Below are positions 19,923 through 23,822 of a stretch of 37,199 nt of DNA, one piece after another. The notes under the pieces were generated by a model, which was not told where the DNA came from, did no database searches, and saw nothing but the letters and a program-made list of their open reading frames with translations. Numbering within the stretch: the first letter of the stretch is position 1; every line of letters starts with the position of its first letter. The position numbers and the translations under genes are program-made. The DNA is from a bacterium. GTDB lineage: Bacteria; Patescibacteriota; Minisyncoccia; Phycocordibacterales; UBA5272. The DNA lies in NCBI GenBank assembly GCA_043771335.1, contig JAYVHM010000015.1:1-37199 (forward strand). Direction: 5' to 3'.

Positions 19923-21014
19923 ATGTCAAAAGATTACTATACATTATTAGGTGTAGACAAAAAAGCTAACAAAGACGAGCTAAAAAAAGCTTTTTATAAA
20001 TTAGCTGCAAAACATCATCCAGATAAAGGGGGTGATGAAGCAAAGTTTAAAGAAGTTAACGAAGCTTATCAGGTCCTTTCTGATGACAAAAAAAGAAAAG
20101 AATATGACATGTACGGTCAGACTTTTAATGGTGCAGGATCAAATGCTGGTGGCCAACAGCAAGGGCAAGGATTCGGAGGATTCAATCCTAATGATTTTCA
20201 GAATATGCAATTTGACATGGATGATATCGGTGATATTTTTGGAGATATGTTCGGAGGCTTTGGAGGATTTGGTGGTGGTCCAAAAGAGAGAAGAGGTCGT
20301 GACATGTCTGTAGATATTGAAATTAATTTTAAAGAGTCGATATTTGGCACAGAGAGAAAGGTTATGATAAACAGAACTTCAAAATGTATAACTTGTAAGT
20401 CTACTGGTGGCGACCTTAACTCTGGAAAAGTAACTTGTACTAAATGTAATGGAAAGGGTAAGATACACGAGATGAAAAGGACCATGTTTGGTAATATGCA
20501 AAGCCAGAGACTGTGCGCAGAGTGTGACGGAGTAGGTCAAGTATACAAAGACAAATGTAAAGATTGTAAAGGGGAAGGAGTTAAGAATGGTAAGTTTGAT
20601 CTTAATATTGCTGTTCCTGCTGGAATAAATAATGGTGAAATGTTAAAGATGACAGAGATGGGTGAGGCTGTGCGTGCTGGTATATCAGGAGATATGTTTA
20701 TAAAAGTTCGCGTGCAAAATGATAAAGTATGGCACAGAGAGAATAATGACTTAGTTATGGATCATAGTATAAAATTAACTGACGCATTACTAGGTATCAA
20801 GCATACCGTAGATGGACTAGATGGAAAAATAGAAGTCATCGTTGAAGGTGGTATTAGTATTGGTGAAGCTATTAGAATACCAGGACGCGGCGTACCATAC
20901 GGACAAAGAAAGCAACGTGGCGACGCTATTATTAATTTAGAAATAGAATTACCAAAAAAACTTTCTAAAAAAGCAAAAGACTTAGTGAAGGAATTGCAAG
21001 AGGAAGGTCTCTAG
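19923..21014 (+). CDS. dnaJ: Chaperone DnaJ
   Basis: J-domain with HPD, G/F-rich linker, four CxxCxxxG repeats. Confidence 0.96.
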   Translation: MSKDYYTLLGVDKKANKDELKKAFYKLAAKHHPDKGGDEAKFKEVNEAYQVLSDDKKRKEYDMYGQTFNGAGSNAGGQQQGQGFGGFNPNDFQNMQFDMDDIGDIFGDMFGGFGGFGGGPKERRGRDMSVDIEINFKESIFGTERKVMINRTSKCITCKSTGGDLNSGKVTCTKCNGKGKIHEMKRTMFGNMQSQRLCAECDGVGQVYKDKCKDCKGEGVKNGKFDLNIAVPAGINNGEMLKMTEMGEAVRAGISGDMFIKVRVQNDKVWHRENNDLVMDHSIKLTDALLGIKHTVDGLDGKIEVIVEGGISIGEAIRIPGRGVPYGQRKQRGDAIINLEIELPKKLSKKAKDLVKELQEEGL

Positions 21015-21035
21015 TTTTTAAAATACTTTATATTA

Positions 21036-21072
21036 TAAATAAAAACACCCCGTAACTTTCGTTATAGGGGTG
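21036..21072 (-). terminator. Intrinsic terminator with minus-strand polarity
   Basis: Minus strand CACCCCTATAAC-GAAA-GTTACGGGGTG-TTTTTATTT. Confidence 0.85.
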
Positions 21073-21248
21073 GCATGCTTTTAAGTCCATGCGTTATGAC
21101 TTTAACCCAGGTTGCGCGCTATGTTAGTCGAGTGAACTGCAAGTTCTTTCGGGCTTGTCTTATGTTGCTGTCCTAGCATTCGCTTTTAGGGTCGTGCCCT
21201 TTTTTTGCTTTCGACAACGGAAGGAATCATCTTCCAAAGCTACTCACT
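21041..21248 (-). ncRNA. Candidate structured non-coding RNA (~205 nt), family unknown
   Basis: GC-elevated interval without a credible ORF, bounded by a strong promoter and a same-strand terminator; several helices can be drawn by hand. Confidence 0.65.
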
Positions 21249-21253
21249 TTTAT

Positions 21254-21281
21254 AGTATAGCAGATACAAATTATTTGTCAA
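21254..21281 (-). promoter_or_regulatory. Sigma70 promoter of candidate ncRNA, divergent from gyrA
   Basis: TTGACA 21281-21276, 16 bp, TGcTATACT (-10 at 21259-21254). Confidence 0.75.
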
Positions 21282-21347
21282 GTGTATTTTATACTTGAAA
21301 AATGTTATAATATTTGTATCAAAAATAAGCTTAATTTATATAGTTAT

Positions 21348-23822
21348 ATGGCAAAATCTAAAAAAGAAGAAGAAAATATTACCCCTCAAGTTGCGGTAGA
21401 AAATGACAGAATAATCAATGCACCAATTGTAGAGGAGATGCGTAAAAGTTATCTAGATTATGCCATGAGTGTTATAACATCTCGCGCACTCCCTGATGCT
21501 CGTGACGGATTAAAGCCGGTACATAGAAGAATATTATACGCCATGAATCAGATAGGTCTCTATCCTACTGCAAAGTTCAGAAAATCTGCAGCAGTGGTTG
21601 GAGAGGTGTTAGGTAAATACCATCCACACGGTGACGCCAGTGTGTATGATGCGATGGTAAAATTAACTCAGGAGTTTTCAACACGTTATCCATTAGTATT
21701 TGGTCAGGGTAACTTTGGCTCAGTTGACGGTGATAATGCTGCGGCTATGCGTTATACTGAGGCAAAGATGAGTAAAGTCGCAATGGAGATGATGCGTGAC
21801 ATTAATAGCGATACTGTAGACATGCGTCCTAATTACGACGGTAGTTATAAAGAGCCAGTAATATTACCAACCATGGTACCAAATCTTCTACTTAACGGAA
21901 CACTTGGTATTGCTGTAGGTATGGCCACAAACATACCTCCACATAACATGAATGAAATATTAGATGCAACTATGCACCTGATTGATAATAAAAATGCGAC
22001 AGCTGAAGATTTGTGTGAATTTGTAAAGGGTCCAGATTTTCCAACCGGAGGACTCGCTTTTAATGAGGCAGATATTCGTCACGCCTCAGCAACTGGTCGT
22101 GGAGGAGTCCTTTGTCGTGGTGAAGCAGAAATAGTAGAAAGCAAAAATGGTCAATTCCAAATCATAATTACAAGTCTGCCTTATCGTGTGAACAAAGCAG
22201 AAATGCAAGAAAAGATAGCAGCGCTTATCAATGACAAAAAAATAGAAGGAATAAAGGGGATACGAGACGAGTCTACTGCTGATGTGCGTGTTGTGATTGA
22301 TTTAAAATCAGGTGCTCAGCCAGAAAAAGTTTTAAATCTTTTGTATAAGTATACAGACCTTGAAACTACTTTTCATTATAACTTAGTAGCTATCGTTGAT
22401 GGTGCACCACAAACTATATCACTCAAGGTTGCTCTAGCAGAGTTCATAAAGCATAGACAAGAAATAGTTAGGAGAAGATGTGAATTTGATTTGAGAAAAG
22501 CGCTAGAACGTGAACATATATTACTTGGTCTTAAAAAAGCTCTTGACCACATTGATGAGATAATAAAGCTAATAAGAGCCAGTAAAGATACTCCAGAAGC
22601 CCACGCGAACTTAATGTCAAAGTTCAAGTTTTCAACATTACAAGCGACAGCAATACTTGAAATGAAATTACAGCGCTTAGCAGGTCTCGAGAGGAAGAAA
22701 ATAGAAGATGAATTAAATGCAGTACAGAAATTAATCGCTGAGCTAAAAGAAATATTAGCCAGCGAAAAGAAAATGCTGAAAATCATCAAAGATGAATTAA
22801 AAGAAATCAAAGAGAAATTTGGAGATGCAAGACGCACAAAAATAGTTAAGCATGGATTAAAAGATTTTAACCCAGAAGATTTGATATCAGAGGAGGACGC
22901 AGTTTTAGTATACACAAAAGGTGGGTATATAAAGAGAACTAATCCGGAAGAATTTAAAACACAAAAGCGTGGAGGTGTTGGTGTTGTTGATCTGGATACA
23001 AAAGAAGAAGATTTTATAACCATGACACTGACTGCTAGCACTCATGCTGATTTACTATTCTTCACAGATAAGGGTAAAGCTTATAAGATAAAGATGTATG
23101 ACATAGCAGAAGGTAAGCGTGCAACCAGAGGTAAAAATGTAATGAATTATTTACAACTTACTGAGAATGAGAAAGTAACTAGCATATTAGAAATACCTAA
23201 AAATGCAAATCATTCAGAGTTGGGTATTATGATGGTGACAAAAATGGGAACAGCTAAAAAGTGTAGCGCTGAAAGTTTTAAAGATGTACGCCGTAGTGGT
23301 ATTATCTCTATTAGACTAGACGAGGGGGATGAGTTGGTTAATACATTATTAGTTAATGCTGGAGATAGTGTTATCTTAACCACTAACAATGGACAAAGCA
23401 TACGCTTTGATCAGGATGATGTGCGTGAGATGGGTCGCACAGCGGGTGGTGTGCGTGGTATGGCCATAGATAAGAGTGACAGCATAGTAGCAGCTGAGAG
23501 CATATTAAAAGGTGATAAAAAATCAAAACTTCTAATCATAACAGAAAATGGTTACGGCAAGATGACACCACTAACCGAATACAAGATACAAAATAGAGGT
23601 GGAAGCGGAATTAAAACTGTAAAAGTCACAGAGAAAACAGGTAAGTTAATAACTGCAAAAGTAATAGAAAATGAAGAGGGTGAAATACTTGCAGTTTCTC
23701 GTCAGTCACAAGTAATTAAGACAGAGGTTAAGACTATCGCTACTAGCGGTCGTGATACCCAAGGCGTTAGGGTTATGAAGTTACGTGACGGAGACAGTAT
23801 TGCAAGTTTATCTTTGTTATAA
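21348..23822 (+). CDS. gyrA: DNA gyrase subunit A
   Basis: [22 protein letters not shown], GyrA-box QKRGGVG. ATG 21348 preferred because TGtTATAAT near 21303-21311 lies within the longer GTG ORF. Confidence 0.97.

Follow-up and report, generated by a model that had tools for sequence, protein, structure and literature searches.

The window analysed here, a stretch of 37,199 nucleotides, belongs to a 650-kb Patescibacteria genome (G000), which is the source of the RNA studied. Between dnaJ (19923–21014, plus strand) and gyrA (plus strand, ATG at 21348), both identified by Pfam matches, lies a minus-strand RNA unit, convergent with dnaJ and divergent from gyrA, whose body of about 205 nt is elevated in GC and poor in ORFs. 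The gyrA start given in the list of open reading frames, GTG 21282, is not the conserved one, which is ATG 21348; the in-frame stretch upstream of the latter (21282–21347) is promoter region. No gene follows the RNA unit on its own strand, either here or at the corresponding locus of G011, the genome of another species of the genus, which agrees with the view of the sequence-only reading that a cis-acting leader is unlikely. A second copy of the RNA was not found elsewhere in G000. Three alleles from close kin were compared, those of G000, of G011 and of a strain variant from the metagenomic run X5 (hereafter the variant). The unit is composed of the following features:

21254–21281, minus strand: sigma-70-type promoter, with the −35 element TTGACA (21281–21276), a 16-nt spacer and an extended −10 element TGcTATACT ending at 21254
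21234–21248, minus strand: predicted transcript start (A21248/G21247, placed from the position of the −10 element) and 15-nt 5′ block AGUGAGUAGCUUUGG, invariant in all three alleles
21219–21235, minus strand: hairpin H2 (GGAAG, loop, CUUCC), lying in the hypervariable stretch 21233–21198; pair probability 0.70/0.76
21205–21213, minus strand: invariant box CGAAAGCAA, the same in all three alleles
21103–21197, minus strand: optional central domain of 95 nt, closed by GACCC (21193–21189) and GGGUU (21108–21104) and deleted in G011
21131–21140, minus strand: GCAGUUCACU, proposed partner of the 5′ end (9 of 10 pairs), unchanged and hence uninformative in the variant, deleted in G011
21073–21092, minus strand: hairpin H6 (GCAUG, 10-nt loop GACUUAAAAG, CAUGC), present in all three alleles and drawn in every fold
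21037–21072, minus strand: intrinsic terminator CACCCCUAUAAC-GAAA-GUUACGGGGUG followed by U5AU3; RNAfold draws the hairpin at 21072–21046

The promoter of the RNA scores 11 of 12 plus the TG element, ranks first among 11 promoter-like sites in the region 20500–21800 and stands back to back with an extended −10 promoter of gyrA. It is kept in G011 and in the variant. The pattern TTGAYA-N13-15-TGnTAYAMT occurs at ten sites in the G000 genome compared with about 0.7 expected from base composition, and all ten point at a gene or an RNA; the promoter of the RNA exceeds chance. The other sites precede tmRNA, a tRNA cluster, EF-Tu, a gene that we take to be L9-like from reading its N-terminus, and further ORFs.

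The transcript predicted from this promoter opens with AGUGAG and runs for about 205 nt through to the hairpin 21072–21046. The first eight or so nucleotides of its 5′ block are also common to other units with the same promoter. The stem of the terminator carries an internal 2×1 loop, and the minus-strand terminator is absent from the list returned by the terminator scan. In G011 the stem is rebuilt with other letters, in the variant the change at 21066 closes a mismatch within it, and a dedicated terminator is present in all three alleles. Most probably, it also ends dnaJ transcripts that arrive from the opposite side. The GC content of the RNA is 42% compared with 33% genome-wide, and its gap ranks ninth by maximum 150-nt GC among the 123 ORF-free gaps of at least 150 nt in G000. 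The promoter, the complementary segments, the terminator hairpin with its U-tract and the GC-elevated body that the sequence-only reading had described are all in place.

Searches with Rfam 15 gave no family match at the gathering score in the window and none at E up to 10 over 20950–21400, where the models for c-di-GMP-I, raiA, riboswitches and ribozymes also remained without a match. The best sub-threshold match was a eukaryotic U1A PIE element over the terminator (22.6 bits compared with a gathering score of 50), and the RNA locus of G011 returned no Rfam match either. This is in line with the sequence-only reading, which had seen no RNase P, tmRNA, SRP or tRNA signature. RNase P RNA and tmRNA are sited elsewhere in the genome, at C14:5152–5470 (120 bits) and at C5:15821–16212 (45.8 bits, slightly below the cut-off of 47). 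An identity with SRP RNA, which had been suspected first, was rejected because no Ffh or FtsY was found in G000.

A very divergent housekeeping RNA missed by the Rfam models would most readily be 6S RNA (RF00013), with which the RNA shares the size of about 200 nt in its long form and a promoter of the stable-RNA class, and no other 6S candidate exists in G000. However, 6S RNA was matched neither in the window, nor in 20950–21400 at E up to 10, nor in a separate search of the whole G000 genome; the control search was positive in 5 of 14 named genomes. The minimum free energy (MFE), centroid and two-sequence consensus folds are branched rather than a rod with a central bubble, and the 3′ third forms two separate hairpins. 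Furthermore, the short form of the RNA measures only 116 nt, and the RNA is missing from 11 of 13 genomes of the genus, unlike a housekeeping RNA. With RNase P RNA and tmRNA located elsewhere and SRP RNA excluded, we assign a housekeeping identity very little probability.

The RNA might also be the mRNA of a very small protein, encoded in a frame of 14 codons, one of 25 codons or a leaderless 5′ frame of 6 codons. These ORFs exist in G000, and the leaderless frame GUG-AGU-AGC-UUU-GGN, with a stop at codon 7, is found in all three alleles. On the other hand, none of the three frames is preceded by a Shine–Dalgarno sequence at a usable distance, and G011 lacks the ORFs of 14 and 25 codons. The longer of these two changes its length in the variant by loss of the stop, and only one of its five changed codons is synonymous. 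As to the leaderless frame, stops are frequent in AT-rich sequence and GUG is a poor leaderless start codon. A coding role was rejected, as the ORFs are not conserved and no usable Shine–Dalgarno sequence precedes them, and the small-protein explanation is scarcely credible. Conservation of the 25-codon ORF had been named in advance as the outcome that would speak against an RNA gene, and the outcome favours the earlier reading: the ORFs are not shared among the alleles, and what lies on the minus strand is a stand-alone unit from promoter to terminator. An own promoter, an own terminator and the lack of a conserved ORF are the generic marks of a stand-alone sRNA gene, and the unit shows all three.

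Comparison of the three alleles showed which parts of the RNA are variable. The variant is represented by an X5 contig (depth 55) that spans 20975–21347 and carries 31 substitutions and 2 indels relative to the window; its allele was rebuilt in a script from the table of differences and used for folding only. A contig from X6 has all nine X5 changes between 21066 and 21156 and is therefore not independent. The G011 RNA of 116 nt corresponds to the long form minus 21197–21103, a clean internal deletion of 95 nt. The deletion ends 4 nt and 1 nt from the closing helix of the central domain, and GUGA/UCAC can still close the rest. The X5 strain has the 5′ hairpin allele and the gyrA-leader insertion of G011 (the latter read from a loose contig end behind 21347), yet it retains the central 95 nt. 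This suggests that the long form is ancestral and that the G011 form arose by deletion. A second X5 contig of low depth (6.1) links the end of dnaJ to the terminator region (window 21004–21037) with 800 other letters between them; a co-occurring strain would thus have other cargo at the dnaJ–gyrA spot.

Between the variant and the window, the RNA differs by 26 changes, 17 of them inside the 36-nt stretch 21233–21198. The rest of the RNA has 9 changes over 173 positions compared with 9 in the last 105 nt of dnaJ, where 5 of 6 tabulated changes are at third codon positions. In this small sample, the comparison hints that most of the RNA is under purifying selection. Two blocks of the central domain, 21197–21157 (41 nt) and 21143–21114, are unchanged between G000 and the variant.

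Several of the changes preserve pairing. The H2 pair 21233–21221 is A-U in G000, G-C in the variant and G-U in G011, and the loop is swapped. In H6, one of five pairs is changed on both sides in G011 (U-A to A-U). The pair 21193/21104 of the central domain differs between G000 (G-U) and the variant (G-C); the GACCC/GGGUU closing helix has a probability of 0.06 in the former and 0.98 in the latter. The G-U pairs in H2 of G011 and at 21193/21104 of G000 fit the minus-strand reading only. Taken over the three close alleles, both-sided changes amount to one pair in H6 and one in H2, the others being one-sided; structure-preserving changes are seen in H2, H6 and the terminator. The CGAAAGCAA box could form a 3-bp hairpin with a CGAAA loop or serve as the 3′ strand of GCUUU/AAAGC.

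The sequence-only reading had proposed, by hand folding, a compact multibranch RNA in which AGUGAGUAGC (21248–21239) pairs with GCAGUUCACU (21140–21131) in a closing helix around a GNRA tetraloop and a receptor-like arm, and had seen in it a stand-alone ncRNA, possibly of a new class; such a class might be an aptamer or ribozyme acting in trans. Every complementary segment of this model exists: GGAAG/CUUCC, C-GAAA-G, GGGC/GCCC, CCUAAA..UAGG, GACUAAC/GUUAAAGUC and GCAUG/CAUGC were all found. When the G000 RNA is forced into the model, its energy lies only 3.3 kcal/mol above the MFE (−48.2 compared with −51.5 kcal/mol), and CCUAAA..UAGG lies within the 41-nt block that is invariant between G000 and the variant. 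The alleles argue against it. The G011 deletion takes the GCAGUUCACU strand of the closing helix, the whole GGGC/GCCC arm and the 5′ strand of the GACUAAC hairpin, and in the variant two of four GGGC/GCCC pairs and one of seven GACUAAC/GUUAAAGUC pairs are broken. There the model costs 9 kcal/mol over the MFE (−49.7 compared with −58.7 kcal/mol). The ensemble pair probability of the closing helix is 0.01 in G000 and 0.00 in the variant, and a 9-of-10 complement of the 5′ 10-mer arises in 140 of 2000 shuffles (7%).

Pairs of a GNRA tetraloop and an 11-nt receptor occur in group I introns and in GEMM-I, and the canonical receptor consensus is CCUAAG..UAUGG. The RNA resembles such pairs in its C-G-closed GAAA loops and in the CCUAAA..UAGG internal loop. 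It differs in that CCUAAA..CUAGG departs from the consensus, that the enclosing helix is broken in the variant and the arm gone in G011, and that c-di-GMP-I gave no match. Neither the multibranch fold nor the receptor resemblance withstood these comparisons, and 'possibly a new class' was an overstatement for a gene present in two species genomes and one further strain. We give the multibranch model little probability, and a new structured-RNA class is not supported.

An alternative architecture fits all three alleles, in which GUGA (21247–21244) would pair with UCAU (21099–21096) around the GACCC/GGGUU domain; it is a hypothesis from three close sequences. Its GUGA/UCAU helix has a G-U pair in the long forms and G-C in G011, and its energy is −48.9 kcal/mol in G000 and −58.7 kcal/mol in the variant, the latter equal to the MFE. 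H2 and H6 are better supported than these alternative closing helices. The MFE z-score of the whole transcript was −1.68; with the terminator removed it was −0.28 in G000, 0.00 in the variant and +0.13 in G011. The RNA body without its terminator folds no better than shuffled sequences, and the predicted global folds of G000 and the variant differ. The counts of pair-preserving changes, from an alignment with two distinct rows only, were matched by 236 of 500 shuffles and are statistically uninformative.

The distribution of the RNA among relatives is narrow. A covariance model (R1, E up to 5) found it in 2 of 13 genomes of the genus and 2 of 150 relatives, and the H6 pattern with at most 2 mismatches in 2 of 96 genomes of the family; the metagenomic strain variant comes in addition. 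In blastn searches of the unit against 61 relatives, the body was matched in G011 alone, all else being promoter only. Synteny upstream of gyrA was also followed, with 30 of 40 genomes with a gyrA match scanned for motifs and 13 loci of the genus read whole; G000 and G011 alone have the RNA gene in this position. The exact H6 pattern was found in no metagenome contig and no viral contig, and among genome contigs in G011 alone. A 30-nt central pattern with at most 3 mismatches was matched in 1 of 401 genomes of the order, G000 itself, and phage records gave no match to the RNA. The 15-mer of the 5′ block matched at least 117 metagenome stretches; inspection of the 117 listed ones revealed no homologue of the RNA.

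These data bear on the main rival to a trans-acting sRNA, namely that the conserved part of the locus is a strong divergent promoter beside gyrA and that the RNA is changeable, largely neutral cargo without a function of its own, young or decaying. In G012 the same promoter, likewise placed upstream of gyrA, drives a leader and a small-peptide gene. The RNA gene is lacking in G006, the closest relative, with a gyrA identity of 89% and a genome completeness of 77%; dnaJ and gyrA are adjacent there, and a decayed remnant of the promoter next to the stop codon of dnaJ is all that is left. Similar promoters upstream of gyrA precede an ORF in G003 and a short hairpin-ended stretch in G007, as judged by reading of the loci. 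The loss of 95 nt in G011, the z-scores near 0 of the body and the target search, in which no target was found, point in the same direction. On the other side, the RNA outside its hypervariable stretch has changed less than the dnaJ tail (9 of 173 compared with 9 of 105 positions), changes in H2 and H6 preserve pairs, the GC-rich body is unlike ordinary spacers and the terminator is kept in all three alleles. In addition, a divergent TTGACA near gyrA is missing in 5 of 13 genomes of the genus. We regard neutral cargo as rather unlikely, if a serious contender.

On balance, the sequence evidence somewhat favours a genuine small RNA gene, independently transcribed, lineage-restricted, dispensable and of recent origin, in a small branch of one Patescibacteria genus, whose product would act in trans as an accessory regulator. 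In support of this reading, the promoter is among the ten such sites in the genome, the gap has its high GC rank and no conserved ORF, structure-preserving changes are found in H2, H6 and the terminator, and G-U pairs that fit this strand only in H2 of G011 and in the central domain of G000. The low rate of change relative to the dnaJ tail and the match between the G011 deletion and the central domain are likewise consistent with it. Against it stand the narrow range and the loss in G006, the shuffle-like body with its disagreeing folds in G000 and the variant, and the pair counts reached by many shuffles. The three alleles are close kin, one of them rebuilt from a table of differences, and in target prediction with the conserved blocks against the 5′ regions of called ORFs the best energies lay within the shuffled background.

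Lineage-specific trans-acting sRNAs are alike in having a strong sigma-70 promoter of their own, a length of 100–200 nt and a 3′ hairpin beside a Rho-independent terminator. They also share conserved short single-stranded blocks between variable stems, a weak thermodynamic z-score, a narrow phylogenetic range and fast turnover. The RNA described here differs from them in its removable internal domain of 95 nt, in the lack of CsrA in the genomes searched and in having no target above background. A role as a CsrA decoy was rejected, as CsrA was found in 0 of 4 genomes. DnaA boxes were not found within 3 kb of the unit, and their count in the window equals chance.

As a trans-acting sRNA, the RNA would begin near 21248 under a promoter that is among the ten strongest in the genome and end at the terminator at about 21040. 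It would be modular, consisting of the 15-nt 5′ block, a fast-changing hairpin, the CGAAAGCAA box, a losable 95-nt domain, H6 with its 10-nt loop and the terminator. The putative contact sites, which may pair with another RNA or hold a protein partner, are three invariant single-stranded blocks: the first 15 nt, the CGAAAGCAA box and the loop of H6. The RNA would be an accessory regulator rather than a core component of the cell. The central domain 21197–21103, with its two blocks unchanged between strains and the G-U to G-C change in its closing helix, might be a functional module in its own right, for instance one that binds a protein or a ligand, carried by a highly expressed RNA, which we consider improbable. 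If this were so, a new class of modular RNA, specific to ultra-small bacteria in which SRP and 6S genes were not detected, would have come into view for the first time.

Patescibacteria have very small genomes and few known regulators. The promoter of the RNA equals those of tmRNA and EF-Tu in strength, which makes the RNA a candidate member of this small set of regulators, and a gene that was gained, internally deleted and lost inside a single genus would illustrate a rapid turnover of such genes. As the evidence stands, the RNA adds to the orphan sRNAs, and its general importance is modest.

The SRP is regarded as near-universal. SRP RNA was sought with RF00169, which was detected in 0 of 61 genomes and not in G000, and with RF01854, which gave 0 matches in G000. 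The Ffh/FtsY profiles PF02978, PF00448 and TIGR00959 also gave 0 matches in G000, and no open frame of this genome contains the motif D[TS][AS]GR, while SecY, the positive control, was recovered with 323 bits at G000:C3:8475–9494. Given that neither an Ffh M domain nor an SRP54-type GTPase, an ffh match or the D[TS][AS]GR motif was found, no SRP RNA is to be expected in G000. Among relatives, the best PF00448 matches were only short or low-scoring, with 35.8 bits in 41 genomes of the order, 22.1 bits in 61 of the class and 20.8 bits in 41 of the phylum; an SRP GTPase of full-length score was found in none of these samples, and the control was positive in 14 of 14 named genomes. The SRP pathway was not detected in G000 and the sampled relatives; if this holds, it could matter more than an orphan sRNA. 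Searches of the literature, including passages of PMC8321541, PMC11383801 and PMC10768705, gave nothing on this RNA or on a loss of SRP from such bacteria. Where PMC10768705 names SRP genes, their locus tags are grouped with the sec genes of the host.

The promoter of the RNA corresponds to a lineage-wide consensus, CTTGACAAATAnTTTGTATCTGCTATACT, that drives diverse small units in these genomes. A family of cassettes with this consensus promoter comprises G000:C11:4302 (L018), L003, L006, L016 and L034, for which Rfam gave no match. Each is laid out as a long 5′ hairpin (AGUGAUUAAGAAAUA.. / ..UAUUUCAAAUUCACA), a UUGUCCUUU box, a Shine–Dalgarno sequence and a gene for a peptide of about 33 amino acids (MKTFGQINAPP...). 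In one copy, GUGA/UCAC of the hairpin is replaced by GUAA/UUAC. Homology of the RNA body to the leaders of these cassettes was rejected, as local alignment gave z of at most 2.8, within the shuffle maxima. Upstream of the EF-Tu gene (tuf), at G000:C3:62353–62590, an extended −10 promoter is followed by a leader that measures about 210 nt and had no Rfam match. Further short units with the same type of promoter, none of them with an Rfam match, are L010, L014, L020 (G029, G019), L017 (G006:C35), X5 contig record 4 and L004 (G007:C42). As judged by reading, these units end in terminator-like hairpins, and several of them are convergent with an ORF.
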